Assembly: GCA_051439505.1 (NCBI GenBank)
Contig: JBFRWI010000101.1
Coordinates: forward strand, 1-17,425
Reading direction: 5' to 3'
Source of the DNA: Hormoscilla sp.
GTDB taxonomy: Bacteria > Cyanobacteriota > Cyanobacteriia > Cyanobacteriales > Desertifilaceae
DNA: 17,425 bases
In this document: positions 421 to 17,425 of the stretch, piece by piece
Position numbering within the stretch: the first letter of the stretch is position 1
Layout: each line of letters opens with the position of its first letter
Notes under the pieces: generated by a model
Told to the model about the DNA's origin: nothing
The model's database searches: none
What the model saw: the letters and a program-made list of their open reading frames with translations, nothing else
Translations under genes and position numbers: made by a program

Positions 421-504
421 GATTGTTGCTCATAGTTCTAAGCAGTCATATGATGCATGAGCATCTGTTGCTAGCAACATCTCAAAACTAGGCTCGGTGT
501 GAGT

Positions 505-3147
505 ATGGTGGGAATTGTAATTGTGTCTCATAGTGCTAAGTTGGCCGCAGGTTTGGCAGAACTGGCAAGACAAATGGTTGGAGATACTGTACCAATGGCG
601 ATCGCGGCAGGAATGTCGGATCCAGAAAATCCCTTGGGCACAGATGTGATGGCGATAAAAGAGGCGATCGCATCTATATATAGTGAAGATGGCATCTTGG
701 TACTGATGGACTTGGGTAGCGCCATCCTCAGTGCGGAAATGGCGTTAGAATTTTTGCCTGCCGACCAACAAGAGAAGGTGAAACTCTGCGAGGCCCCCCT
801 GGTGGAAGGAACGATCGCCGCAGCAGTGCAGGCAGGGACCGGTGCATCCCTGGATGAGGTGATGGCGGAAGCGCGAAATGCCCTGAAAGCCAAAGTCGCT
901 CAGTTATCGGGGGGGGAAACTGTCAGTTCGGATGGAGAACCAGAACTACCGCTGGCCAATAGTCCCTCGCAAGAGGAAATCAGCTCGGAAATTCATCTTA
1001 CGATCGCAAATCAGATGGGGTTGCACGCTCGTCCGGCAGCTAAATTGGTGCAGACTGCTTCGAGGTTTCAGTGTCAGATCGCGTTACAAAATTTGACCAA
1101 AGGCAGTCAGCCAGTGAATGCTAAAAGTATTAATCAAGTGGTGACTTTAGCTGTAGGTCAAGGGGAGAAAATCGCGATCGCGGCTAGGGGAAATGATGCA
1201 GAGGCGGCCCTGAAAGCTTTGCAGCAACTGGTGGAGAATCATTTTGGCGAGTCGGAAACAGCCTTAGTAGAGAAGGATCTCCCAGTCGCAGGATCCCCCC
1301 AAACCCCCCTTAAAAAGGGGGGCTTAGAAGCCCCCCCTTTCGCAAGGGGGGGTTTGGGGGGGATCCCGGGATCAACTACTTTTGACCACACCCTCAATTC
1401 TCAGTTATCGTCCCATACAATATCGGGCATTCCCATATCCCCGGGAGTGGCGATCGGGCCAGCGGTATTGTATCAATTGCCAGTTTTCCAGGTAGAAGTG
1501 CAGTTAGCGGAGAATCCCGAATCTGAATGGGAAAAGTTGCGCATCGCCCTGGACAGGGCGGCATTTGAGATTCAACAAATCCGCCAAGAGACCGCAATTC
1601 CAGCAGAAGCGACGATATTTGATGCTCATTTACTCTGTTTGTCAGATCCGGCGTTGCTAGAAGCGGTTCATCAGCAGATTTTTGCCGAAGGACTGACCGC
1701 CGCCGCCGCTTGGCAGAGGGTAATCGATGGGATAATGGCTACCTATAAATCTCTAGAAAATCCCTATTTACGGGAACGGGCGGCAGATCTGTTTGATGTG
1801 GGACAGCGAGTGCTAGGATTGCTGACAGGAGTCAGCTCCATAAATATAGAACTATCGGAACCGATATCGGCACCGAGTATTTTGGTGGCTCAGGACTTGA
1901 CAGCATCGCAAATCGCTAAGCTGGATGTGACGAAAATATTGGGTATTTGTACGGTTAGCGGCAGTCCTCTATCCCATGGGGCAATTTTAGCCCGATCGCT
2001 GGGGATTCCCGCAGTGTTCGGAGTGGGATCCCAGGAGTTATTGCAGCTCGAAAATGGTCGGGCGATCGCTCTGAATGGGGAAACGGGTCAGGTGTGGATC
2101 GACCCGGAACCAGCAAGCATCGCCGCCTTAGAAGACCTCAGGCAGAGTCAATTAGCTACCCGCAAATCCTTACTAACTGCTGCAGCAAAGCCCTGCTATA
2201 CTCGGGATGGATATCAGATTAAAGTAATGGCCAATATTGGCGGAGTTGCGGATGGGAAAATGGCCCGCAAATACGGTGCCGATGGCGTGGGATTGCTGCG
2301 GACGGAATTGCTTTATTTAGACAGCACTGAAGCCCCCAGGGAGGTAGAACAATTAGAAATTTATCGGGCGATCGCCAAGGGGACTGCCCCCCATCCTCTA
2401 ACTATTCGGGTTTTCGATATGGGGGGCGATAAACCCCTGCCTTTTATGTCCAGTCTGGATGGTGGGTGGGGCCAAAACCAAGGGGATCTGATGCTGGGAT
2501 GGCGGGGAATTAGAGTATTATTAGATTGTCCCGAACTGTTGAAAACTCAGTTAAGAGCAATTCTGCAAGCCAGTTACGGACATCAGCTCAAAATCTTATT
2601 ACCCATGGTGGCATCTTTACCGGAAATGAGAGGGGTTAAACAGATTTTAGCCGAGTCGAAAGCAGAATTGAGACAAGGGGGAATTCCCTTTGATGAAAAT
2701 ATCCCAGTGGGAATAGCGATCGAAGTTCCGGCATCAGTGGCGATCGCCGATCGATTAGCAGCAGAAGTGGACTTTTTCAGTATTGGCACCAATGACTTAA
2801 GTCAATATACGATGGCGGCGGATCGGAACAATGCTAGAGTTGCCAATCTTGCGGATGGGTTTCAACCAGCGGTGCTCAGAATGATTCAGCAGACGGTAAA
2901 ATCAGCCCAGGGATGGGGCATTTCCGTAGCAGTTTGTGGCGAGTTAGCCTCGGAAATTTTAGCCGTGCCAATTTTATTAGGATTGGGAATTGATGAATTA
3001 AGTATGAATGGGCCCATGATTCCGCAAATAAAGGCCGCTGTGGGCAAATTAAAAATCACGGAAGCGAAGGAAATTGCCGAGGCAGTATTACAATTAGATA
3101 CCGCAGCAGATGTGAGAGAATATGTGAAGAATTGTTGCAAGATATAG
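505..3147 (+). CDS. dhaM: Multidomain PTS phosphotransferase for dihydroxyacetone kinase: DhaM-type EIIA + HPr + full-length Enzyme I (PEP-protein phosphotransferase, PtsP-like)
   Basis: N-terminal MVGIVIVSHS...LVLMDLGSA (DhaM EIIA); GLHARPAA (HPr His); SHGAILARSLGIPAV (EI His); GLLRTE, DMGGDK, LGWRGIR, FFSIGTNDLSQY and VCGELA (EI PEP-binding domain); adjacent to dhaK/dhaL. ATG 505 preferred by homology; GTG 499 is possible. Confidence 0.93.
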   Translation: MVGIVIVSHSAKLAAGLAELARQMVGDTVPMAIAAGMSDPENPLGTDVMAIKEAIASIYSEDGILVLMDLGSAILSAEMALEFLPADQQEKVKLCEAPLVEGTIAAAVQAGTGASLDEVMAEARNALKAKVAQLSGGETVSSDGEPELPLANSPSQEEISSEIHLTIANQMGLHARPAAKLVQTASRFQCQIALQNLTKGSQPVNAKSINQVVTLAVGQGEKIAIAARGNDAEAALKALQQLVENHFGESETALVEKDLPVAGSPQTPLKKGGLEAPPFARGGLGGIPGSTTFDHTLNSQLSSHTISGIPISPGVAIGPAVLYQLPVFQVEVQLAENPESEWEKLRIALDRAAFEIQQIRQETAIPAEATIFDAHLLCLSDPALLEAVHQQIFAEGLTAAAAWQRVIDGIMATYKSLENPYLRERAADLFDVGQRVLGLLTGVSSINIELSEPISAPSILVAQDLTASQIAKLDVTKILGICTVSGSPLSHGAILARSLGIPAVFGVGSQELLQLENGRAIALNGETGQVWIDPEPASIAALEDLRQSQLATRKSLLTAAAKPCYTRDGYQIKVMANIGGVADGKMARKYGADGVGLLRTELLYLDSTEAPREVEQLEIYRAIAKGTAPHPLTIRVFDMGGDKPLPFMSSLDGGWGQNQGDLMLGWRGIRVLLDCPELLKTQLRAILQASYGHQLKILLPMVASLPEMRGVKQILAESKAELRQGGIPFDENIPVGIAIEVPASVAIADRLAAEVDFFSIGTNDLSQYTMAADRNNARVANLADGFQPAVLRMIQQTVKSAQGWGISVAVCGELASEILAVPILLGLGIDELSMNGPMIPQIKAAVGKLKITEAKEIAEAVLQLDTAADVREYVKNCCKI
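1279..1393 (+). repeat. 115-bp dispersed palindromic element, copy 2, read through in frame inside dhaM
   Basis: Inverted copy of 83..197. It encodes LPVAGSPQTPLKKGGLEAPPFARGGLGGIPGSTTFDHT between the HPr and EI domains. Confidence 0.9.
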
Positions 3148-3196
3148 CAGTTATAAAATTACTGTGATATGCTGTTGGGGATGTTGCTTAGGGGGG

Positions 3197-3279
3197 GAGA
3201 TTGCTTCGGGGGGGTTAACTCATAAAGCATAAGTTGATCGCTACGTACCCCCCACGCTGCGCGAAAAATCGCAATGACA
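3197..3279. repeat. GAGATTGCTTCG...TCGCAATGACA-type dispersed repeat with an extended interior
   Basis: Both recognisable ends are present (3197-3208, 3269-3279). The interior has a G-run/C-run pair able to form a stem. Confidence 0.5.
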
Positions 3280-3346
3280 AATAAGAGATTTGGCTGTAAC
3301 ACATCAATTTGAGAAAGGCAATAGAAACTGAAGAAAAAGAGGAAAG

Positions 3347-4420
3347 ATGAAAAAAATAATTAATAGCCCGGATAACTTTGTGAGAGAAAGTCTAGAAGGA
3401 CTGGCATTAGCTCATGGGGATCTGATAAAAGTTAACTACGATCCCAACTTTATTTACCGGGCAGATGGGCCGGGAAAAAATAAAGTGGCCCTGGTTTCTG
3501 GGGGTGGGAGTGGACATGAACCAATGCACGGAGGATTTGTCGGTTACGGAATGCTGGATGCCGCTTGTCCCGGTGAAGTGTTCACATCTCCCACCCCCGA
3601 TCAAATGCTAGAAGCTGCCAAAGTTGTCAATAATGGGGCGGGAGTGCTGAATATTGTCACAAACTACTCTGGGGACTTGATGAATTTTGAGATGGCGGCG
3701 GAGTTGGCTAACTCAGAAGATATCCCGATGTTGAATATCTTAATTGATGATGATGTGGCCGTTAAAGATAGTATTTATACTCAAGGTCGTCGCGGAGTGG
3801 GCACCACAGTGTTAGCGGAAAAAATCTGTGGAGCAGCGGCAGAACAGGGGTATAAGTTACAGCAACTGGCCGACCTTTGTCGCCGAGTTAATCTGCATGG
3901 CCGTAGCATGGGCATGGCCCTGACTTCCTGTACAATACCCGCTAAAGGTAGCCCCACTTTTGAACTGGGAGAGGGAGAAATAGAAGTGGGCATTGGCGTT
4001 CACGGAGAACCGGGACGAAAGCGCATGGTGCTGAAATCAGCGGATGAAATTACAGAAATGCTGGCGTTATCAATTATCGAAGATTCCGACTATACTCGCC
4101 GGGTTCGGGAGTGGGATCTAAAGAAAAATGACTGGGTGGAGATAGAACTGGTTGACCCACCTATGGAAAAGGGCGATCGGGTGCTGGCTTTTGTAAACAG
4201 CATGGGGGGCACGCCAATTTCCGAACTATACATCATCTATCGGAAACTAGCAGAAATTTGCGAGCAGAAAGGGTTAAAAATTGTCAGAAACTTAGTGGGG
4301 CATTATATCACTTCTCTGGAAATGCAGGGCTGCTCGATTACTTTGCTGAAGATGGATGATGAACTGATTAAATTTTGGGATGCGCCGGTGAAAACACCGG
4401 CTATGCGCTGGGGAATTTAA
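3347..4420 (+). CDS. dhaK: Dihydroxyacetone kinase substrate-binding subunit DhaK
   Basis: [63 protein letters not shown] upstream. Confidence 0.96.
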
Positions 4421-4440
4421 CCGGGATCATCCCATATTTG

Positions 4441-4500
4441 CGCCCGAACCCTAAAGGGCCCGGCTACAGGAACAAAGCCCGCCTGCGCGGGCTACATTAC
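4441..4500 (-). repeat. 60-bp double-hairpin GTAG-type REP-like element, copy 1
   Basis: Its reverse complement is 57/60 identical to 10218..10277. It has two hairpins, each preceded by GTAG on the minus strand. Confidence 0.9.
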
Positions 4501-4589
4501 ATGCATTATCGTTGCACCCAATTTAACCATTGTTTGGGTCTGGTTTATGGTTAACTCGAAATTAAATAATTGAAGCTTCAAAGATAAAC

Positions 4590-5216
4590 ATGGTGACAAA
4601 ACAGCAAATTTGGCAATGGTTGCAGGCGGTAGTGACGACGATCGCCCAAAATAAAGACTATTTAACAGAACTGGATGCGGCGATCGGGGATGCAGACCAC
4701 GGCATAAATCTCCATCGGGGCTTTCAAAAAGTGCAAGACCAGTTACCCCAGTTGGCAGAGAAAGACATTGGCAGTATGCTCAAAACCGTGAGTATGACTC
4801 TGATTTCCACAGTGGGTGGGGCCAGTGGGCCGCTGTACGGTACCTTATTTTTGCGAGGGAGTGCCGCCGTTGGGGCCAAAGAAGAACTCAGTAATGAAGA
4901 TTTGGTCGCCTTTTTTCAAGGGGCGGTGGCGGGAGTCCTGCAACGGGGAAAAGCGCAACTGGGTGATAAGACCATGTTGGATGCCCTGATCCCGGCGTCG
5001 GATGCCTTCCAGCAAGCGATCGCCTCCGGTGATGAGACCGTAGTTGCGTTGTCAAAGGCGGTGGCCGCAGCAGAAACTGGCAAGGATAATACCATTCCCT
5101 TAGTGGCGAAAAAAGGCCGGGCGAGTTATTTGGGCGATCGCAGCATCGGTCATCCCGATCCTGGGGCCACTTCCACTTATTTAATTTTGAACGCCTTCTT
5201 AGAAGTGCTCAAATAA
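4590..5216 (+). CDS. dhaL: Dihydroxyacetone kinase ADP-binding subunit DhaL
   Basis: LTELDAAIGDADHG, VGGASGPLYGT, GDKTMLDAL, KGRASYLGDRSIGHPDPGATS. Confidence 0.96.
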   Translation: MVTKQQIWQWLQAVVTTIAQNKDYLTELDAAIGDADHGINLHRGFQKVQDQLPQLAEKDIGSMLKTVSMTLISTVGGASGPLYGTLFLRGSAAVGAKEELSNEDLVAFFQGAVAGVLQRGKAQLGDKTMLDALIPASDAFQQAIASGDETVVALSKAVAAAETGKDNTIPLVAKKGRASYLGDRSIGHPDPGATSTYLILNAFLEVLK

Positions 5217-5332: not shown

Positions 5333-6217
5333 ATGTCTGGTCATCAACTGCGTAAAATCCTAGAACAACCGGGAATTCTCACCCTGCCTGGGGTCTACGA
5401 CTGCATCGGCGCGAAACTGACAGAACAATTAGGTTTTGAAGCGGTGTTCACTAGCGGTTTCGGCATTTCCGGCTCCACCCTCGGTCAGCCGGACTACGGT
5501 TTCCTCACGGCCACGGAAATGCTCTATTCTGTGGGCCGGATCGCTCAATCTGTAAATATCCCCCTCGTCGCTGATATTGATACTGGTTATGGCAACCCCC
5601 TGAACGTGATCCGAACCGTTACAGAAGTAGTGAAGTTAGGGGTTGCTGGCATTATTTTGGAAGACCAGTGCTGGCCCAAGAAATGCGGTCATTTTGAGGG
5701 CAAGCGCGTAATTGAGATGAGCGAACATGTCGAGAAAATTAAAGCAGCAGTTCATGCTAGGGGCGATAGCGGTCTGGTAATCATTGGTCGGACGGATGCC
5801 CGGGCCCCCCTGGGTTTAGAAGCAGCAATTCGTCGGGGTCAAGCTTATTTTGACGCCGGTGCTGATGTGGTTTTCATCGAGGCTCCCCAGTCCCTGGATG
5901 ACCTGAAGGCGATCGCCTCTGCCTTCGATAAGAACGTGCCTTTGTTTGCCAACATGATAGAAGGGGGGAAAACTCCTGTTCTTTCGGGGAAAGAACTACA
6001 AGAATTAGGTTTCAAAATTGTGGTTTATCCCCTTTCCGGTCTGTTCTCGGCAACGAAAGCACTGATGAATTGCTTGAGCCATTTGAAGGAAAATGGAACT
6101 ACCTCTGGGTTTACCGATCTAGTTAATTTCCAAGAGTTCGAGCAAATTATTAACGTGCCCTATTATAAGCAACTGGAAAAGCAGTTTGCCGTGCCTAGCA
6201 CTCAGGATGAAGCCTAA
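5333..6217 (+). CDS. Isocitrate lyase/PEP mutase family protein (PrpB/CPEP-mutase/dimethylmalate lyase-like; substrate not assignable)
   Basis: FTSGFG, PLVADIDTGYG, LEDQCWPKKCGH, GRTDA, GADVVFIEA, ANMIEGGKTP. The TTG start at 5315 lies inside the STRR, so ATG 5333 was chosen. Confidence 0.9.
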   Translation: MSGHQLRKILEQPGILTLPGVYDCIGAKLTEQLGFEAVFTSGFGISGSTLGQPDYGFLTATEMLYSVGRIAQSVNIPLVADIDTGYGNPLNVIRTVTEVVKLGVAGIILEDQCWPKKCGHFEGKRVIEMSEHVEKIKAAVHARGDSGLVIIGRTDARAPLGLEAAIRRGQAYFDAGADVVFIEAPQSLDDLKAIASAFDKNVPLFANMIEGGKTPVLSGKELQELGFKIVVYPLSGLFSATKALMNCLSHLKENGTTSGFTDLVNFQEFEQIINVPYYKQLEKQFAVPSTQDEA

Positions 6218-6270
6218 GCTTCTGGGTAAGGTGGGCGGGGCATGGCAGCAGGTTGTGCCCCGGTATCCAT

Positions 6271-6423
6271 GCGATCAGGTGGTCGGGTTGGCGGGTTGGC
6301 GGGTTGGCGGGCGATCGGGTTGTGGGGCGATCGGACGATCTGGAGATCGGGCGATCGGGTTGGCGGGCGATCGGGTGGTCGGGCGATCGGGTTGTGGGGC
6401 GATCGGATGGTCGGGCGATCGGG
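6271..6423. repeat. Degenerate 8-nt tandem array (GGGCGATC / GGGTTGGC / GGGTGGTC units), HIP1-related
   Basis: 8-nt periodicity over about 150 nt; similar shorter tracts at about 9215-9318, 9526-9550 and 9781-9806. Confidence 0.85.
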
Positions 6424-6442
6424 GAAATTGTGGGATGTGGCC

Positions 6443-6503
6443 GGGGCACGGCAACAGAGAATTGGCGGGCGATGGTGTTAATTTGCGGATGCCGTGCCCC
6501 TAC
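6443..6503 (-). repeat. 61-bp long-loop GTAG REP-like element
   Basis: GGGGCACGGC-38 nt-GCCGTGCCCC-TAC; four more members lie at 9319, 9452, 9575 and 9709. Confidence 0.88.
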
Positions 6504-6531
6504 GGTTAATTGGTTGGGATGGGTAAATTTG

Positions 6532-6540
6532 TGGTATAAT
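6532..6540 (+). promoter_or_regulatory. Putative extended -10 promoter (TGnTATAAT) for the protease-TPR gene
   Basis: TGGTATAAT, a perfect extended -10, about 220 nt upstream of ATG 6760. Confidence 0.45.
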
Positions 6541-6605
6541 TTTTGATATTGGTCTAGGAGAAATTGGGCAGGTGTGCTGGTGATGACAGGAGGCAGAGCT
6601 TCGTG

Positions 6606-6652: not shown

Positions 6653-6703
6653 AGTCGGTTTTCAACCGACTTCAGCTATTAGCCGTGGGTTTGAACCCAC
6701 GGC
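6653..6703 (+). repeat. Double-hairpin dispersed repeat
   Basis: AGTCGGTT-TTC-AACCGACT, 10-nt linker, GCCGTGGGTT-TG-AACCCACGGC; same two-hairpin layout as the 4441/10218 element. Confidence 0.75.
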
Positions 6704-6759
6704 GGGGTAACAGCGAAGATGAGAGATTAGAGAACGAAATGTAAAGGGAGGATAGTAGG

Positions 6760-9186
6760 ATGAAGCACAGAGGAATAGTTCTGATTTCAGCAATAGGTTT
6801 GTTGCTGCTGCCGGGGGGTAACACTTCACTTTGGTCAAAACCAGTTGATAAAAAAATACCACACCCGCTTCTGGTGGGCGGTGCCCACCCTACGGAGACT
6901 GCCCAATTGCAGGAATTGGCAGAGTCGATTACTGTCAGAGTGATGAGGGAAAATGGCGCTGGTTCGGGGACGCTGATTAGAAAAAATGGGCAGGTTTATA
7001 CTGTGCTCACTAATGCTCATGTGGTTCGCCCTGGCAAACCCCACCGCATCGAGACTCCTGATGGCATGTCCTATCCGGCCCAGGTTGTCAATGTTACTCA
7101 GAATGCCTACGATATGGCTATTTTACAGTTTACCGCTGGGGCTGACTATGAAGTGGTATCTTTAGCTAGTTCTCCTGGGAAGGTTTCGGAGCCCGTGTTT
7201 GCGGCTGGGTTCCCTTCGGAAGCCCGATCGTTGCTCTTTACCAGGGGAGAGATTTCTATGTTTCCTCCTGTGGCTTTGCGGGATGGCTATCAAATCGGCT
7301 ACACCAATGATATCCAACAGGGTATGAGTGGCGGTCCCGTGCTGAATGGTGCGGGTGAGTTGATAGGCATTAATGGTATGAATGCTTTTGTGATTTTGCA
7401 GAGTGCCTATGAATTTGTTGATGGTTCCTACCCTAGCGACGAGCTGCGCTCTGAGATGAACCGCTTGAGTTGGGGGGTGCCCATTGGCAGGTTGGCCTCT
7501 GTAGATCCTAGCTTTGCAGAAGACTTCAGTCCAGAGAGGCCATCTCTGACGGGTGTGGCGGCTGAGGTACTCGATATTGCCCGACAGATTACGGTGCGCA
7601 TTGAGAGGGAACGGGGGAATGGTTCGGGAGTGATTATTGCGCAGCAGGGAAATACTTACTATGTCCTGACTGCGGGTCACGTGATGAAGAAAAAAAGGGA
7701 ATATGAGGTGGTCGCCCATGATGGGAAGCGATACCCGGTGGACTATGAGTTGGTACGCATACTGGAAGGGGTGGACATGGCGGTGTTGCAGTTCCAGAGC
7801 AATGAAAGTTACCGCGTGGCAACTTTGTCAAATTATAGGTTGGGGACAGAAGAAAGACGCTGGGTTTTTCTGTCGGGGTGGCCGGGTTTGAAAGCTGTCC
7901 AGTCCAGAAGTGCTGACCCAAAGTTGACCGCTGGAGTGGTTTTGAGCAAGGAAAGGGGGTCTCTTAATGCGAAAAGCACGAGTTCTTTAACTGAAAAAAA
8001 TGGTTATGAGCTAGTTTACACTAATCCTGCTCAAGGAGGGATGAGTGGCGGACCCCTGTTAGATGCTCGCGGGCGGGTAATTGGCATTCATGCGGCAGCA
8101 GAGGGAGACTTTATATATGAAGAAAGGGCTAGCGTTCAACTGGGTTTTAGTTTGGGAGTGCCAGTCAGGACGCTTTTGAGTTTGACAAGGAAGGCGAAAA
8201 TAAAATCTGAGTGGTTAAAGGTAGAGTCGTCAGCACCACCGCCACTGAAGAGAGGAGAAGTAACTGCCATCCGCGAGGCTTTATTCACTGCAAAGAGACC
8301 GTCAAAGGGTGCAAAGGCAACGGATTGGATAAATTATGGGAATCAATTGTGGCGGTTATTTGAATATGAGGAGGCGGTGGCGGCGTTTGACGAAGCGATT
8401 AAACTGAAGCCAAAATTAGAGCAAGCATGGTATGGGCGGGGTTTGGCGCTGTCCTCTCAGCGAAATTATCGAGAAGCTGTGGCATCTTTTGATAAAGCTA
8501 CGGAAATAAATCCCAGATTATATGAGGCTTGGCGCGAACGAGGTGAGGCGCTTTCCTTGTTAAAACGATACCCAGAGGCACTGGCATCTTTTGATAAAGC
8601 GATTAATCTAAAACCTGAAGATTCAGTACTTTATGGTTTGCGTGGTTGGATACTACGAGGATTAGAACGCTATGCAGAAGCAGTGGAGGCTTACAGTAAA
8701 GCGATCTACATTTGGCCCCATGCCATTGCCTATAACGACCGGGGTCTGACACGCTCAGACTTGGGAGAATATTCAGAGGCGATCGCGGATTACAATAAGG
8801 CGATAGAAATTAACCCCGAATTCGCCTTACCCTACAACAACAGGGGGAATGCACGCTCAGACTTGGGAGAATATTCAGGGGCGATCGCGGATTACAATAA
8901 GGCGATAGAAATTAACCCATACTTGGCAGAAGCCTACAACAACCGGGGAGCAGCACGATCTAACTTGGGAGACTATAAAGGGGCGATTTCAGATTACAAT
9001 AAGGCGATAGAAATTAATCCCCAAAATGGCGCTACTTATGCAAATAGTGGGCTTTTATATTATAAAATAGGAGATAGACAAAGAGCGATCGCAGATATGC
9101 AGAAAGCTGCACAACTATTATGCGAACAAAGAAGTCCTAATTGCCAACTAGCACAGGAATTACTCAGACAGCTTCAGCAGCAGTAG
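6760..9186 (+). CDS. Probably exported serine protease with two trypsin-like (S1) domains and a C-terminal TPR array
   Basis: Hydrophobic N-terminus. Domain 1: LTNAHVV / YDMAIL / GMSGGPVLN. Domain 2: LTAGHVM / VDMAVL / GMSGGPLLD. About 8 TPRs (e.g. AYNNRG...DYNKAIEINP). GGAGG upstream. Confidence 0.92.
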   Translation: MKHRGIVLISAIGLLLLPGGNTSLWSKPVDKKIPHPLLVGGAHPTETAQLQELAESITVRVMRENGAGSGTLIRKNGQVYTVLTNAHVVRPGKPHRIETPDGMSYPAQVVNVTQNAYDMAILQFTAGADYEVVSLASSPGKVSEPVFAAGFPSEARSLLFTRGEISMFPPVALRDGYQIGYTNDIQQGMSGGPVLNGAGELIGINGMNAFVILQSAYEFVDGSYPSDELRSEMNRLSWGVPIGRLASVDPSFAEDFSPERPSLTGVAAEVLDIARQITVRIERERGNGSGVIIAQQGNTYYVLTAGHVMKKKREYEVVAHDGKRYPVDYELVRILEGVDMAVLQFQSNESYRVATLSNYRLGTEERRWVFLSGWPGLKAVQSRSADPKLTAGVVLSKERGSLNAKSTSSLTEKNGYELVYTNPAQGGMSGGPLLDARGRVIGIHAAAEGDFIYEERASVQLGFSLGVPVRTLLSLTRKAKIKSEWLKVESSAPPPLKRGEVTAIREALFTAKRPSKGAKATDWINYGNQLWRLFEYEEAVAAFDEAIKLKPKLEQAWYGRGLALSSQRNYREAVASFDKATEINPRLYEAWRERGEALSLLKRYPEALASFDKAINLKPEDSVLYGLRGWILRGLERYAEAVEAYSKAIYIWPHAIAYNDRGLTRSDLGEYSEAIADYNKAIEINPEFALPYNNRGNARSDLGEYSGAIADYNKAIEINPYLAEAYNNRGAARSNLGDYKGAISDYNKAIEINPQNGATYANSGLLYYKIGDRQRAIADMQKAAQLLCEQRSPNCQLAQELLRQLQQQ
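6873..6893 (-). repeat. 21-nt GTAG REP-like hairpin inside the protease CDS
   Basis: GGTGGGC-GGT-GCCCACC-CTAC, read as VGGAHPT just after the signal region. Confidence 0.75.
8728..9033 (+). repeat. Three tandem 102-bp TPR-coding repeats
   Basis: Units 8728-8829, 8830-8931 and 8932-9033; units 1 and 2 share a 67-nt stretch with one mismatch. Confidence 0.9.
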
Positions 9187-10146: not shown

Positions 10147-10217
10147 GAATTCAGCTCCCTAATGCAACTAGCCCCCTGACAACCCGATCGCCCTCAGACG
10201 GGTTTCTACTCACTAAA

Positions 10218-10277
10218 GTAATCTAGCCCGCGCAGGCGGGCTTTGTTCATGTAGCCGGACCCTTTAGGGTTCGGGCG
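10218..10277 (+). repeat. 60-bp double-hairpin GTAG-type REP-like element, copy 2
   Basis: 57/60 identical to the reverse complement of 4441..4500. Confidence 0.9.
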
Positions 10278-10287
10278 GCTGCCAAAT

Positions 10288-12304: not shown

Positions 12305-12901
12305 ATGGATGAAATGTTGTTGCGAAGTCTTGTCTGGACTGACTACCGCCTGGCGGTAATATTTACAGTGTTGATACCCCTAGGGCTGCTCGTCTGGGCG
12401 GCTGTCAAGCGATCGGGGGCGGTGGTGCATTTATTAATCATCTACTGGCGAGTTGCGAGTCTGCTAGCAATTACAGTCTATCTGATGATTGCTGCTATGC
12501 CCATCAGTTTTATCTCAAGTCTGTGCGCCCGCATTTTGATTCCCATCTCCCTGTGGTTTTGGGTGGACCTGAACGAAGAAATTGAAGATTTGCCGTCATC
12601 TCGGCCTTTGAAACTATGCTTTACTGCCTGGCGCTGGGCAGTAACAATTTACACGCTTGGGGGCGCTGTGGCCCAAATTTCTAGTCTGCGTTGTGCGGTG
12701 CTGGGAAAAGCCCAACTGATCGCCGATCCATTTTGCAGCGTTTGGCTAGAAGCCCCTTGGGCCTATAAACAGATTTTCCATGGCAACTCTACGGAAGGAT
12801 TTTTAGGGGTTCTGGGGATCCTGGGCTTAATGATTTACGTTGTGTACTTCAGCTCTTTTGTGCTGTTCAAACTAGGCAAGCAAGGACGATCGGCTGTATA
12901 A
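12305..12901 (+). CDS. DUF3177 family membrane protein
   Basis: LVWTDYRLAV, IIYWRVASLLAITVYL, SLWFWVDLNEEI, AWRWA, KLGKQGRSA and several hydrophobic segments. The start could be 12290, 12299 or 12305. Confidence 0.85.
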   Translation: MDEMLLRSLVWTDYRLAVIFTVLIPLGLLVWAAVKRSGAVVHLLIIYWRVASLLAITVYLMIAAMPISFISSLCARILIPISLWFWVDLNEEIEDLPSSRPLKLCFTAWRWAVTIYTLGGAVAQISSLRCAVLGKAQLIADPFCSVWLEAPWAYKQIFHGNSTEGFLGVLGILGLMIYVVYFSSFVLFKLGKQGRSAV

Positions 12902-12935
12902 GTAGTTCGTAGTTCGTAGTTCGTAGTTCGTAGTT
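12902..12935. repeat. Heptamer short tandem repeat (GTAGTTC)n, STRR type
   Basis: Four perfect units plus GTAGTT directly after the stop codon. Confidence 0.9.
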
Positions 12936-13028
12936 ATTTTCAGATTTTCTGCTCTCCAGCTACCTTTGGCTTTCAGCTTGGATTACGATATTACATAATG
13001 TGCATTGAAAATGCACGACCGCTTAACT

Positions 13029-13328
13029 ATGAATAACTCAATTGCAAACCGTCTGGAACAGTATACCATTAAACGTCCCCAAGAAGTGCTGCTGGTGGCG
13101 GCAGAAATTAATGGAGAATCAGATCTAATTCTGATTTTCAAGGGGTTTTCTAGTTCCCTAATGCGCCCGACGGCTTTTGACCCCGATGTCCCAGTTCTGC
13201 CAGGGTCCGCGAGGATTGTTACTATCGATCGGGTCAAAAGTCCCTTAAATCTAGATGCTCCCTGTTACATTCAACAGGGACTGACTTGGGAAACTATGGA
13301 ACCTCTCTTGGCAGAGGTGGGAGTTTGA
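13029..13328 (+). CDS. Conserved cyanobacterial hypothetical protein (about 99 aa)
   Basis: RLEQYT..RPQEVL, IFKGFSSSLMRPTAFDPDVPVLP and IDR..SP form a pattern I recognise from a small cyanobacterial/plastid family. ATG 13029 preferred. Confidence 0.8.
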   Translation: MNNSIANRLEQYTIKRPQEVLLVAAEINGESDLILIFKGFSSSLMRPTAFDPDVPVLPGSARIVTIDRVKSPLNLDAPCYIQQGLTWETMEPLLAEVGV

Positions 13329-13535
13329 TTTATGTATAGAAAATGCCATCACCCGTTTCCCGGAGGTTCTCACATTGTGGTGGGGCTATACTTCGCTACG
13401 CGGGTTTGATTGGCATTCTTAATTATAAGAGAACAACTGTGCTTGATGATGCAGGCGATCGCCCGCGTCTGTGCGGATAGTATACCTGTCATGTCAAGTG
13501 ATCCTTTGAGGATAATGAGTTAACCCTGGGAAGTT

Positions 13536-13748
13536 ATGTTGGCGATCGAGTTTCAGGCAACTATCAAAAATGGCTTCATCAAAATACCTGATGAATATCA
13601 GCAGCAATTTGAACGGCAAAAATCTGTAAAAGTTATTCTGATGAAGGAGGAAACTCTCCCGACACAAGATTTAATTGGTCAATTGCTAAGTACACCTCTA
13701 GAGATTGAGAATTTTTTTCCTTTGAAACGAGAGGATATTTATGATTGA
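13536..13748 (+). CDS. Small hypothetical protein, putative antitoxin of the type that precedes PIN toxins
   Basis: IEFQATIKNGFIKIP (AbrB-like beta start) and a PLKREDIYD tail; no toxin follows. Confidence 0.65.
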   Translation: MLAIEFQATIKNGFIKIPDEYQQQFERQKSVKVILMKEETLPTQDLIGQLLSTPLEIENFFPLKREDIYD

Positions 13749-13756
13749 GACTCCGC

Positions 13757-15337
13757 CTACTGGCACGGCAACTCGTGGGCTAGACGATCGCAAAGTTCGA
13801 TCGCCGACAAGCAAAAAGCTACAGCAACTTCCAGGGATACTTCCTGTCCCTCTGTATGTTGACCGAAATCACCTACAGTTTGGATGTGACTGACAAGGAT
13901 AGCGGTGGACTTGGAAACAAAACGGGCACAAATATTGGTATTGCCTTTGCGAGTGTTTGTCATCACGCGCAGAATCTCGCACTGAATCCCACGACTACCT
14001 GGAAGACGGCTTTGGTCTTGTTTCCACTCGTTGTCTTGCTCCCACTGTTCGATCCATTCTGGCGGGATTTGGCGATCGGGCACTTCGGCATTCCAGATTA
14101 ACTCAAGAACTCGATCGGCGATCTGGCGGAACCAGATTATCGCATCCTTTGGCTCTGGATGCAAGTCTTCGATCGCTCGTCGGATACGACGCTGCAACTC
14201 GGGATCGGCATTTTGTATTTGGGCCAGTCTTAATTCGAGTAGACTACGAACATTTTTTTTATAGCTTTGGATGTTACCAAATAAACGGCGCAAATCATTT
14301 ACTTGACTGCCTTGCTGAGCTGCATACTCTTGGATGAAACGGCAGGAAGCCCGAAGCTTGCTGCCCGAGCTGCTCCCATAGCCGCGCTCTTCTAAAATTT
14401 TACAGCGGTCAGGGGGGATTTGGGACAAAGGCAGGTCTTGTTTGGCGAGATCGATTAGGTCGCTTTGAACTTCCACCGAGCAGTCATCCCAGAGTTCGTC
14501 GAGAATGGTTCGATATCGATCGAGTACCTGGTTGGCAGTGGCGTCAACTTGTTGTTTAGAAACCGTGGCTCCCGATTCAACTTGGCTCCAAATGCCCGAA
14601 CAGATAGCAGCCGCTAGGATAGGCACTCCTCCACTCCAATTGATGAGTTCCTTTTGACCGCTGCTATCAAAGGAAATTAAGAGATCTTGAAAAGGCGATA
14701 ATAGCTCGGGCCAGTCGCTCTCTTCAAATATACTTACTTTCAGAGGAGTAGGGTTGAAGATATTCCAGAAATCTGAGGTTTGAGAAGCCTCAGTTTTACA
14801 AATCTCCCGCAGGGGTCGGCGGCTGCCTGTTACTAAGGACAGGCTTTTTTTCTCAGCCAGAGATCTGAGGTAATCCCAGAGGTTGCGAGTAATGCTTGTC
14901 ATTCCCAGCACTCGATCAAAGCCGTCAAGAACCGCTAGAAGTCGTTGTCCCTCATCTTCTAAAAATTCCAGCACTTCGGGGAGTATATCCCATAAATCTT
15001 CAGAACCGGGCTCTATTTCATTTGCTACTTCCGGTGTAACTGGCATGAGTGCTGATTTCAGTTCCTCGGCAAAACGACACAGGAACTGATTATCTGATGA
15101 GGGGGTTTGATGACCCAAATCCCAGTATATGGCAGTATCGTATGATTTACCTTCCGATTGAAAGCGATCGACGACATGCTTGAGAAAGACTGTTTTGCCA
15201 ATTAACTTGGGTCCGACGACCTGTACGTGGTCGGGGGTTGGCTTCACGAGCTGACGGGTCAATTGCTCCAATAGCTTTTGTCGGCCCCGCAGAATGACTG
15301 GCTCGGTGCCCAATACTCGATAGGGATTAGTTGTCAT
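13757..15337 (-). CDS. P-loop (STAND/AAA-like) ATP-binding protein with a C-terminal helical, possibly HEPN-like, domain
   Basis: NPY...GR..LL lead-in, Walker A GPKLIGKT, Walker B LAVLDGFD, LVTGSR, SGGVPIL (GxP); C-terminal AIIWFRQIADRVLE...VGDFGQH. Confidence 0.85.
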   Translation of the reverse strand: MTTNPYRVLGTEPVILRGRQKLLEQLTRQLVKPTPDHVQVVGPKLIGKTVFLKHVVDRFQSEGKSYDTAIYWDLGHQTPSSDNQFLCRFAEELKSALMPVTPEVANEIEPGSEDLWDILPEVLEFLEDEGQRLLAVLDGFDRVLGMTSITRNLWDYLRSLAEKKSLSLVTGSRRPLREICKTEASQTSDFWNIFNPTPLKVSIFEESDWPELLSPFQDLLISFDSSGQKELINWSGGVPILAAAICSGIWSQVESGATVSKQQVDATANQVLDRYRTILDELWDDCSVEVQSDLIDLAKQDLPLSQIPPDRCKILEERGYGSSSGSKLRASCRFIQEYAAQQGSQVNDLRRLFGNIQSYKKNVRSLLELRLAQIQNADPELQRRIRRAIEDLHPEPKDAIIWFRQIADRVLELIWNAEVPDRQIPPEWIEQWEQDNEWKQDQSRLPGSRGIQCEILRVMTNTRKGNTNICARFVSKSTAILVSHIQTVGDFGQHTEGQEVSLEVAVAFCLSAIELCDRLAHELPCQ

Positions 15338-17425
15338 CGAAAATTCTCCTGTCCTTCTTGTACTGCTTTGCGGCGAATGTCTTCATGGTCAATATGAGCC
15401 TTAATCCAGTTAGCCATGAGTGGAATCGCTAGCTTGTAGACGGCGGATGAAACTCCTGTGTTGTCCAGTTCCAGAAGTTCGAGTTCTCGCAGAAACTCAA
15501 GATCTTCATCCAAGCTCTTCCCAGGGGTAATCTGGACTTCTGCCTCTTCTAACTTATTCTCTAATATAGCCATATTCAAGGGGTCAGGCCCCTCTTCTAG
15601 CTGATGGCATAGTGACAGGATAAACCTCCTCCGGTCCGTACCCGCGTAATCCCATAATGTCCGGAAATGCTCGTTATCCCGCACCATGTCATCAGCAGCG
15701 GCTTGCACGGCGCTGAGGGTAATGGTTCGATCGCCACTCTGAGCTGCTCGCTCAAAAATGCGGTTACACAGCACCTGAATTAAGTAAGGCTGGCAAGCGC
15801 AGAGCGCGATGAGGCGGTCTCGTGCTTGGGGAACGTACACGAGGCGACCTTCCACAGGTTTAGTCACCAGTTTCCGGGCCTCGTCTGGTTCGAGGGGGTC
15901 GAGTCCAATCCGGTAGCCCAAACCAAATAGTACAGACCAGTATTCCTCTCGCAGACGCTTCAAGCGACGGGAACCCGTGATGATACCGGATAAATTAGGA
16001 TAGGTCTGGAACAGATAGCGGATATTTTCAGGAACCTGGGCGCTGGTGGCACCCGAATCAATTCCTTCTTGGAGCTTGTCGAATTCATCCAGCATGAATA
16101 GGATCCGGCGCGGACTTGCCGCTTCGAGAATGGATTGCACGAACATTTCAAAGTCTTCAAAAGGATTGTCTGGGGAAAAGTATTGACGGAGCGATTTCAC
16201 AAACTGGAATCGAAAACGTTGAGTTTGCTCCAAGGTCGGCATACCGGGAAGCTGCACGGTGATGCCAGCCTCATACGCCCCGATCCCAAGCTGCTTTGCC
16301 ATCAAGCGAAATACTTCCTTGGTCGCCAGTCCCACTCTATCCTTGTCACCCTCAGCCCCCTGAAAAGAACACTCTACCACAATCCATCCAGGCAGCTTTC
16401 CTTCTAGTTGAAGGTATCTCAATATCGATGTTTTTCCCGTTCTGCGGTTACCCTCTAAAAGAATAACGTTAGCATTCTCTGATGTAGCCAGTTGCCGCCG
16501 GATAGCATCTATTTTCTGGCCGCGTCCAAAAAACATTTCTTCCCGGTCAACAGGGTTGCCTACAATATAGGGGCTAGCGCCTAAGTCTCTCATGAAAGAT
16601 GTTCCTACAGGTCTAATCTCAAGAGTGAGTGGAATTTCTCCTTTAGTTTGGTCGCCATTCAAAAACGTACCACGCCAATGGACTTTAAAGTTCAGCATTC
16701 CCTTATCCTCTTGGGCGGGAACCGTCAAAGGCACATCTATATTCTCTCCTTCAGCTAAGTATGGCCTTTTGGTCTCGCCCAGTTTCCGGCTTGTGGAAAT
16801 AACCAAATCGCGAATTGGCATAACTCCGCTGTTGTCTAAAGTCAGAATTACTTCTGATGGCTTGTCTGTGTCAATGACTGGCGGGCTTAACTTTGCTTCT
16901 AGGCGAACGTCTGTAACTTGCTCTTGTATCTGTGAGCTTACCAGTTCGAGCAGTGCAATTGTAAATTGTTTAGCTCGCTTAACGAATGGATCCTCGGAAT
17001 CGGCTAGGCGTTGGAGCGCTAGAGTCAGAGAAAGTTTCAGATTTGTCAGCACAGCCAGACTGGCAGTGCCAGGGGGAATCTCCTCGAACCGCTGCAACTG
17101 ACGGAAGCCATATCTTACATCAGATACCCACCCATAGAGCAAGCGTCTTTTTTGCCCTGGGACGGAATCAATTGTATCCCAGAGCAATAAAATATGCTCG
17201 CCAGTCTTTAGAAGTAAAGCAAGATTGACTTTCGCATAGATAACAGCATTTATAACATTTTCGACTATCGGATCTGTTTCCAACCAGTCATCAAGCAGAT
17301 TGAAATTGTCTTGGTTTAGACAAGCAAGAAGCCGCTTCGTGGCGTCTATAGCGCTGTTATATTTTGTACTAACTACCTTCTTCTGAATATCCAATGGTGG
17401 TACTGGAACTGGAATTTGACGGAGA
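15334..17425 (-). CDS. Large multidomain protein, 5' end outside the window: HsdS-like motif, helical region, Ig/CARDB-like domain, STAND-type AAA ATPase, wHTH-like tail
   Basis: The frame stays open to the window edge (LRQIPVPVPPLDIQKKVV). SPYIVGNPV..FFGR, Walker A GNRRTGKTS, Walker B FMLDEFD, IITGSR, CQPYLIQVLC. Its stop overlaps the next ATG (ATGA, 15334-15337). Confidence 0.88.
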   Translation of the reverse strand, partial: LRQIPVPVPPLDIQKKVVSTKYNSAIDATKRLLACLNQDNFNLLDDWLETDPIVENVINAVIYAKVNLALLLKTGEHILLLWDTIDSVPGQKRRLLYGWVSDVRYGFRQLQRFEEIPPGTASLAVLTNLKLSLTLALQRLADSEDPFVKRAKQFTIALLELVSSQIQEQVTDVRLEAKLSPPVIDTDKPSEVILTLDNSGVMPIRDLVISTSRKLGETKRPYLAEGENIDVPLTVPAQEDKGMLNFKVHWRGTFLNGDQTKGEIPLTLEIRPVGTSFMRDLGASPYIVGNPVDREEMFFGRGQKIDAIRRQLATSENANVILLEGNRRTGKTSILRYLQLEGKLPGWIVVECSFQGAEGDKDRVGLATKEVFRLMAKQLGIGAYEAGITVQLPGMPTLEQTQRFRFQFVKSLRQYFSPDNPFEDFEMFVQSILEAASPRRILFMLDEFDKLQEGIDSGATSAQVPENIRYLFQTYPNLSGIITGSRRLKRLREEYWSVLFGLGYRIGLDPLEPDEARKLVTKPVEGRLVYVPQARDRLIALCACQPYLIQVLCNRIFERAAQSGDRTITLSAVQAAADDMVRDNEHFRTLWDYAGTDRRRFILSLCHQLEEGPDPLNMAILENKLEEAEVQITPGKSLDEDLEFLRELELLELDNTGVSSAVYKLAIPLMANWIKAHIDHEDIRRKAVQEGQENFR

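Follow-up and report, generated by a model that had tools for sequence, protein, structure and literature searches.

What does it mean for a DNA-recognition motif and a STAND-type ATPase to share one reading frame? The question is raised by the end of contig JBFRWI010000101.1 of the cyanobacterium Hormoscilla sp. (GenBank assembly GCA_051439505.1), where two long minus-strand open reading frames (ORFs), ORF-A and ORF-B, lie in tandem, and ORF-A runs off the contig carrying a motif like that of the specificity subunit HsdS of Type I restriction-modification (R-M) systems. A sequence-only reading of the window (the whole contig, 17,425 nt) had suggested a hybrid in which an R-M-like recognition module is wired to a two-ATPase switch and an effector. 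We find that the A-B pair is a real, conserved, widespread and unnamed two-gene module, present here as a truncated cyanobacterial copy. Its composition and linkage, the loss of a catalytic Asn and the behaviour of its target recognition domain (TRD) emerge from comparison of homologous sequences, and we consider a defence role of some kind to be likely.

Architecture and pairing of proteins A and B

ORF-A (15334..17425, minus strand) encodes 696 amino acids (aa) in a frame that is open at the contig end, and corresponds to the 3' half of a protein of about 1,350 aa. In the nearest relatives, P0001 and P0002, which are 90 and 89% identical to ORF-A over their residues 659-1357 and 669-1367, the frame continues upstream through a TRD and then an HsdM-like domain, and two strain contigs of about 95% identity, which come from separate studies and extend 2.3 kb and 11.8 kb beyond the window edge, also show that the frame goes on past position 17425. 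Full-length A proteins thus consist of an HsdM-like domain, a single TRD, a helical bundle, an Ig-like domain, a STAND NTPase and a winged helix-turn-helix (wHTH), and the proposed wiring of an R-M-like module to the ATPases takes the form of a direct fusion to the STAND domain of A. Among longer proteins, 8,000 were scored and 1,070 were long homologues; the best 120 of these share the same architecture, all with N6_Mtase and most with 1,250-1,480 aa. A metagenome scan with P0001 returned nothing beyond four distant STAND proteins. Forms of A with a duplicated STAND-wHTH unit (1,700-1,830 aa) also occur (P0015, P0017 and L076:9944-15448).

The part of A inside the window, all on the minus strand, begins with the end of the single HsdS-type TRD, comprising the conserved-region motif and the following helix (residues 1-36, 17317..17424). 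The HsdS-like motif noted at the window edge is genuine: PADLOC Specificity_I matches it at E 0.021 in ORF-A and at E 5e-19 in P0001, which also matches PF01420 (E 1.6e-7), and the motif is of the same type as in neighbouring HsdS proteins. It is followed by a fast-evolving helical bundle linker in the AlphaFold2 model (residues 43-170, 16915..17298; median identity 0.23 across 24 operons) and by a beta-sandwich in the secondary structure of the same model (residues 175-271, 16612..16902), which we infer to be Ig-like from its seven-strand pattern and not from a fold-search match. The STAND/ORC-like NTPase (15595..16578), with intact Walker A and Walker B motifs, is the most conserved part of A, and the protein ends at the modelled C-terminal winged helix (15337..15573), with no TPR, LRR or WD40 repeats after the STAND domain and no repeat Pfam.

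ORF-B (13757..15337, minus strand) encodes 526 aa with a STAND NTPase, a wHTH and a helical, HEPN-like tail. Its NTPase (14483..15298, minus strand) has an intact Walker A, a NACHT-type Walker B and invariant sensor-1 and GxP motifs. In fold searches, the AlphaFold2 models (pLDDT confidence 87.1 for A and 90.4 for B) match the archaeal ATPases 2qen (spanning residues 284-676 of A) and 2fna, ORC/Cdc6 proteins and nucleotide-binding leucine-rich repeat receptors (NLRs), and the matches of the whole-model searches are all to STAND domains. Both proteins have the features of STAND/ORC-Cdc6-like NTPases, namely Walker A/B, sensor-1, a helical domain with a GxP-type motif and a winged helix, in agreement with the assignment made from the sequence alone. 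Only a remote likeness links A and B (21.5% identity over 251 aa), which excludes a recent duplication of A as the origin of B.

The two genes are tightly linked across phyla. A scan of GTDB genomes gave 143 candidates, of which 115 were confirmed as relatives and 80 were returned as loci; after two were dropped as too short, B directly follows A in 77 of the 78 loci with at least 600 nt downstream, the sole miss being L043. Of the 70 pairs with an assignable start (out of 73), 34 have a gap of -4 nt and 18 a gap of -8 nt, and in 68 the genes are no more than 30 nt apart. In the window, the ATGA stop/start overlap (15334..15337, minus strand) suggests translational coupling. Judged by record titles, carriers include cyanobacteria, planctomycetes, acidobacteria, spirochaetes, gemmatimonads, delta- and gammaproteobacteria, verrucomicrobia and others. 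The pair is nonetheless patchily distributed, and was not found in any of four congeners or in 200 other genomes of the order.

A heteromer is also predicted by modelling. The A-B complex scored 0.80, with 0.00 for the best control; of 157 solved complexes, 116 attain the mark for this score, as do 2 of 215 mismatched pairs. At least 96% of contacts are shared between model runs, and the partner pLDDT is at least 83. The predicted interface places B residues 150-164, 175-177 and 189-198, many of them invariant, near the P-loop (327-328, 332) and lid of A, which fits head-to-tail AAA+ stacking.

A few loci depart from this plan. In L053 (7391-11230) and L054 (7769-11659), a YprA-like helicase (match to 6znp, E 7e-32) takes the place of the methylase-TRD-bundle-Ig portion before the same STAND-A, and B is still the next gene. 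In P0345 and P0322, the methylase-like domain is joined directly to a B-type tail. The STAND-less forms differ in domain order: P0345 has FHA, methylase-like domain, TRD and tail, P0322 a methylase-like domain and a tail with canonical RNxxxH, and P0269 a tail and an HATPase-like domain. A family of such fusions was not found, with one match among 627 candidates and no second long relative of P0345.

Methylase-like domain, fused TRD and tail

In 76 fused methylase-like domains, the first position of motif IV is Asn in 22, Val, Ala or Thr in 45, and Ser, Asp or His in 9. Among the best 120 of the 1,070 long homologues, Asn is found in five, with ten unparsed. The separate HsdM proteins next to the pair have NPPY in 30 of 44 short HsdM-cluster ORFs when these are left unfiltered, the other 14 being fragments; the 30 HsdM rows used for comparison at motif IV were themselves chosen on NPPY. 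In M.EcoKI, changes of N266 or F269 abolish activity (PMC2647291; here and below, cited papers are drawn on for their accessible parts). Because the Asn that is essential in M.EcoKI has been lost, most copies of the methylase-like domain of A are probably pseudo-enzymes. The methylase half of the Hormoscilla copy lies beyond the window edge, but motif IV is VPPF in P0001 and P0002, suggesting that this copy is non-catalytic too. Other elements of the fold are kept, including motif I (mostly of FGxGG, FGxAG and FGxGE types), the acidic residue of motif II (72 of 76) and the aromatic residues of the base pocket. As the motif IV tree has no reliable root (basal support 0.27), we claim no order of events in the loss.

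The fused TRD behaves differently from the TRDs of the neighbouring HsdS proteins. Across 24 complete operons, its median pairwise identity is 0.37, compared with 0.18 and 0.22 for the HsdS TRDs, and it tracks the identity of STAND and HsdM (rho 0.82), a relation missing from the HsdS TRDs (rho -0.02 to 0.23); since pairs are not independent, these values are descriptions and not significance tests. The fused TRD is no nearer to the HsdS of its own operon than expected by chance (mean rank 12.2 of 24), and in close pairs it is 89-95% identical while the HsdS TRDs are 13-32% identical. It follows the backbone and is far from its own HsdS, and therefore stands outside the specificity shuffle; by this comparison, the fused TRD appears to be vertically inherited, and the neighbouring HsdS TRDs to shuffle. 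Like the HsdS TRDs, it is net basic. The closest solved structure to the methylase-TRD part is 5ybb, and the fused TRD was matched by Esub1 (E 3e-8), which the accessible description presents as a stand-alone TRD-like protein to which a phage protein binds.

The C-terminal tail of B (residues 379-522, 13772..14203, minus strand) is a 150-aa all-helical domain in the AlphaFold2 model, in which R404 and H494 are conserved positions. A search with a tail profile found 403 representatives, and nearly all of the 150 listed matches are B-like proteins or their fragments. Of 265 rows, 262 have the His, and the position four before it is Arg in 26 and Gly in 235; the Hormoscilla copy has G489 and H494, and so lacks the Arg of the Rx4-6H catalytic motif. 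Among 258 rows scored, 233 have the first-helix Arg (R404 here), all without the canonical Arg, the 24 with the canonical Arg all lack the first-helix one, and one row has neither. The alignment thus indicates that the tail carries one Arg at either of two mutually exclusive positions. DUF4145 proteins also have a first-helix Arg and a GNxxxH pattern, and align with the tail in register, albeit weakly. The ESM Atlas gave no usable match for the tail, and the tail profile gave nothing meaningful against PDB sequences. The tail is modelled as all-helical and keeps the His, but the DUF4145 match is weak and the canonical Arg is missing here. HEPN-like is the best label for this putative effector domain, a weakly supported one.

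The two catalytic sites define two subfamilies, one with the methylase Asn and RNxxxH (12 loci, mostly with R-M genes) and one with no Asn and Gly at the canonical Arg position (42 loci, including the kin of this copy); six further loci combine Asn with Gly, and two are of other types.

Operon context, related systems and proposed mechanism

In its fullest form, the operon encodes an RtcR-like sigma-54 activator, HsdR (EcoEI-like), HsdM, HsdS, A and B, and these four kinds of gene (regulator, HsdR, HsdM and HsdS) are the only conserved neighbours of the pair. Judging from sequence comparison, the best explanation for this arrangement is that the module grew out of a Type I R-M operon. Among the 62 loci with at least 7 kb upstream, HsdM is present in 32, and 28 lack both HsdR and HsdM in the DNA that was fetched. 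The idea that the pair is a backup fired when R-M is inhibited, raised from the sequence alone, finds no support in these 28 loci or in the host genome, where no cognate HsdM was found with one query. In L047 (7573-15267) and L109 (9798-17563), HsdR is followed by A and B without a separate HsdM or HsdS; L109 is a plasmid copy and adjoins WYL and JAB-domain genes. Two further genes recur in some operons: a conserved 560-610-aa gene without a family match between activator and HsdR (L065:3468-5309, L067:4073-5764, L077:2889-4730), and a Zn-ribbon gene of about 335 aa (PDC-M14A-like, E 1e-21) between HsdS and A (L069, L072 at 7349-8374, L083 and L085).

The activator (RtcR_PspF2, E 3e-199) is found in 38 of the 62 loci, and in none of the six cyanobacterial loci among them. 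Using a pattern that we take to be the sigma-54 promoter consensus, matches were found at the 3' end of the activator gene in 21 of 37 loci, including loci where A directly follows the activator, compared with 0 of 37 upstream of it and 2 of 37 in an in-gene control. In 9 of 34 loci, the first gene downstream on the same strand matches a PADLOC defence model at E 1e-20 or better, as against 4 of 33 distant genes; these genes include Tiamat, Cas12k, Hhe, PDC-S02, GmrSD, two pAgo systems, a CBASS effector and DruH. Together with the frequent Type I R-M operon, this agrees with the expected defence-island setting.

Among known systems, the pair would work most like Ronin and PrrC, although on the features compared it belongs to neither, nor to Avs, MADS or MANTIS. 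As is proposed for the pair, Ronin, an HsdMS decoy, ties an HsdM/HsdS-type unit without HsdR to a cell-death effector, does not need methyltransferase activity and is triggered by anti-restriction proteins (bioRxiv 10.1101/2023.04.06.535777). However, its HsdM and HsdS are separate and its effector RonA is a 61-aa membrane toxin with no ATPase, whereas in A-B the methylase-like domain and one TRD are fused to a STAND NTPase, natural copies have mostly lost the Asn, and a second STAND protein carries the putative effector, its HEPN-like tail. In the 80 loci, a fused M-TRD-STAND and its partner (526 aa here) stand in place of the Ronin set of discrete hsdM and hsdS genes plus a short membrane-spanning ronA; ronA itself was not searched for. 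PrrC of EcoPrrI likewise couples an NTPase and a HEPN domain within a Type I R-M operon as a second line of defence (PMC3710099), but PrrC, as in PrrC/RloC, is an ABC ATPase held by a working R-M enzyme, while A-B has two STAND/AAA+-like NTPases and a dedicated methylase-like copy fused to one of them. Avs proteins (e.g., Avs3, 8dgc) share the STAND NTPase, helical domain and wHTH, and an oligomerisation-driven effector may be common to both; unlike Avs and NLRs, A-B has no C-terminal repeat sensor, the putative sensor being N-terminal on A and the putative effector C-terminal on B. A term search of the accessible text and seven supplements of a 589-clade STAND survey (PMC13581612) found no mention of a methyltransferase or methylase.

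With Type I methyltransferases (HsdM2-HsdS1), A shares the N-terminal helical domain, the S-adenosylmethionine-binding motifs and a TRD with the conserved-region motif, but it has one fused, unshuffled TRD in place of the two shuffled TRDs of HsdS. Its homologues retain the motif I and acidic motif II of an active HsdM, mostly without the catalytic NPPY/F, and in full operons a normal HsdM (NPPY) and HsdS adjoin it. RtcR/PspF-like CARF activators of defence superoperons belong to the same activator family and are linked to R-M (PMC4012209, PMC11090510), but the accessible parts of these papers make no mention of the fusion or of its partner; one gene in Supplementary File 4 of PMC4012209 combines COG0286, COG0732 and COG1672, and its annotation says no more than that it is a subunit of a Type I methyltransferase. 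MANTIS (Gao_RL) and MADS also join a methyltransferase-type protein to ATPase partners, and weak PADLOC matches were seen to mad8 on STAND-A (E 0.006) and to mad2/mad5 on the M and S domains of P0001. However, as far as the accessible accounts describe them, MANTIS is a four-gene set (MtsABCD) with an active methylase and a helicase-nuclease, and MADS an eight-gene methylating system (mad1-8), and neither set is present here. MANTIS, MADS, ARMADA, BREX-related and HEC systems were ruled out by gene content. NCBIfam and PADLOC contain no family-level match for ORF-A or ORF-B and no model for the pair, and no description of it was found in the accessible literature, including PMC12839542, PMC11090510, PMC13581612 and bioRxiv papers, with subscription journals mostly outside the search; the absence of a recognised name for this architecture thus stands.

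The reading that we favour, with no better than even confidence, is that A-B is a defence module that can be induced and is made up of sensor, switch and effector: an M-TRD clamp unable to methylate would detect anti-restriction proteins or foreign DNA and trigger a HEPN-type output. In this scheme, the sensor would be a dimer of A, shaped like an M2S clamp but no longer methylating; engagement of a ligand would cause the STAND domains of A and B to stack head-to-tail and oligomerise, and the B tails, brought together, would produce an output by RNA cleavage or RNA binding that arrests the infected cell. Outside cyanobacteria, the pair often lies behind a sigma-54 promoter and an RtcR-like CARF activator. 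The likeliest ligand would be a phage anti-restriction protein or DNA mimic directed against HsdM/HsdS, for which A would be a decoy, or, with somewhat lower probability, foreign or abnormal DNA; neither is more probable than not. A more elaborate version, which we hold to be rather less likely than not, is a paired-STAND integrated decoy: a sensor STAND with a dead copy of the R-M clamp that phages target traps anti-restriction proteins, the bait being exchangeable (for the YprA helicase, in one lineage), a helper STAND carries a HEPN nuclease whose catalytic Arg has moved to another helix, and a sigma-54 activator that senses cyclic phosphate is the switch. The logic would resemble that of plant paired NLRs with an integrated decoy, of the RRS1/RPS4 type.

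Several observations weigh against this scheme. If A were a decoy, one might expect it to resemble the local HsdM/HsdS closely, but its methylase-like domain is only 24-39% identical to them. The layout, with sensor N-terminal and effector C-terminal, is the reverse of Avs and NLRs, and motif IV of this copy is taken from relatives because the window is without the methylase half. The host genome gave no sigma-54 match, while 4 of 14 control genomes did. The contrast between near and distant defence genes is modest, and 23 of 57 loci have no downstream gene to scan. Since ORC/Cdc6-type heteromers have been solved and the controls included no other STAND ATPase, the complex score may reflect likeness only. 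L053 and L054 are 73% identical and represent one event in two species, and the swaps and fusions, being single events, may be deletion fusions. As for the tail, hhalign against ten DUF4145 sequences gave a probability of 1.7% (E 0.03), and Pfam DUF4145 matches 2 of 66 tails (best E 0.046). The DUF4145 RNase RAZR needs an Arg (R146) eight residues before the His (PMC13017515); this copy has Gln at that position and Gly at the Rx4H Arg, and its tail therefore may not cut RNA. Lastly, the exclusive Arg positions, like the association between NPPW and RNxxxH, divide along two clades, and so amount to few events.

The best-surviving alternative, which we consider rather doubtful, is a DNA-reading restriction accessory: a non-methylating M-S clamp would read a fixed sequence, or a modified base in the flip-out pocket, the ORC/Cdc6-like ATPases would load the clamp, HsdR would be recruited to cut, and the tail would be a dimerisation or regulatory domain. 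Both ATPases, with their terminal wHTH, are indeed closer to ORC/Cdc6 and archaeal ATPases than to repeat-bearing NLRs, the conserved motifs I and II, aromatic residues and basic TRD would suit such a reader, L047 and the plasmid locus have just HsdR, A and B, and in MANTIS MtsA/MtsB load MtsC, according to the accessible account. By contrast, 28 of the 62 loci lack both HsdR and HsdM in the fetched DNA, and the pair persists after R-M loss in close kin (L022 and L023 compared with L019, L024, L025 and L028); a TRD reading sequence in an arms race should shuffle like HsdS, which the fused TRD does not, and the conserved His and Arg of the tail go unexplained.

A second alternative, improbable in our view, is that the module is a non-killing regulator with both catalytic sites dead in the clade of this copy, acting as a switch for signalling or for restriction alleviation by binding HsdR, DNA or RNA without cutting. 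The combined loss of the methylase Asn and of the HEPN Arg (Gly), seen in 42 of the 65 loci scored at both sites, is in its favour, and motif-less HEPN families have been proposed to act by binding (PMC3710099), but the near-universal tail His, the presence of the alternative Arg exactly where the canonical one is lost, the defence-island context and the patchy spread argue against it. That A works as a second methyltransferase, in the NPPW clade if nowhere else, with the Val/Ala forms (including this one) as decaying remnants, is highly improbable: the domains that keep Asn are mostly of one clade (support 0.89) with R-M genes usually kept (16 of 20), and several loci are broken (L016, L028, L043, L055), but Asn is rare among the closest long homologues, and the Val/Ala forms are a majority found in many phyla, with open frames of about 1,300 aa, a near-invariant STAND core and strain copies of about 95% DNA identity in separate studies.

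If the favoured sensor-switch-effector reading is true, the module would be a widespread, multi-phylum addition to the guards of restriction-modification, and would provide an example of STAND immune switches with a reversed layout, in which sensor and helper are paired and the bait derives from an enzyme. As two genes suffice in many genomes and the two natural subfamilies differ at both catalytic sites, direct tests are possible, and cultured carriers that are not pathogens exist (L044, L067, L076 and the Desulfococcus entry of the PMC4012209 supplement). In addition, A proteins are an annotation trap, as they are filed as ordinary N-6 methylases.

The locus in Hormoscilla

The assembly (6.47 Mb) is 93% complete, and its break at this locus hides what lies upstream of this copy; the 5' half of A was not found elsewhere in the assembly by tblastn with four full-length homologues as queries. 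Synteny with four congeners breaks at 13330-13336, and the segment 13331..13756 (not strand-specific) is the left boundary of a variable island. In all four congeners (L105-L108), the same site, after the DUF7734 gene ending at 13328, holds different cargo, namely DUF4325 (STAS-like), PIN, a Ser/Thr kinase-SF1 helicase fusion of about 1,140 aa and a PLD-domain protein, an arrangement suggestive of a further defence-type cassette at a hot spot. The boundary zone contains a 70-aa ORF (13536-13748, plus strand) with no Pfam match. Within 13536-13756, it overlaps by ATGA a second start that reads into the end of ORF-B, and one strain contig has 909 extra bases at 13746/13753; this region was possibly a small toxin-antitoxin pair, the second gene of which would have been lost here.

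Two further large STAND genes, distant relatives of STAND-A, are present in the host genome (C53:73593-77354 and C220:30221-34207, with 972- and 1,001-aa frames). Short repeats at about 4441-4507, 6653-6718, 10209-10282 and 12898-12945 of the window occur in many copies in congeners and have very high contig depth, and a low-complexity repeat tract lies within 6195-6546. Neighbours of the pair in the window include DUF7734, DUF3177 and FIST genes, which, like the closest named homologues of A and B, indicate a cyanobacterial host. Judged from translations, the 499-5216 region encodes a PTS phosphotransfer fusion protein with DhaK/DhaL-like genes after it, and a double trypsin-domain and TPR protein is encoded in 6760-9186; all this is ordinary content for such a genome.

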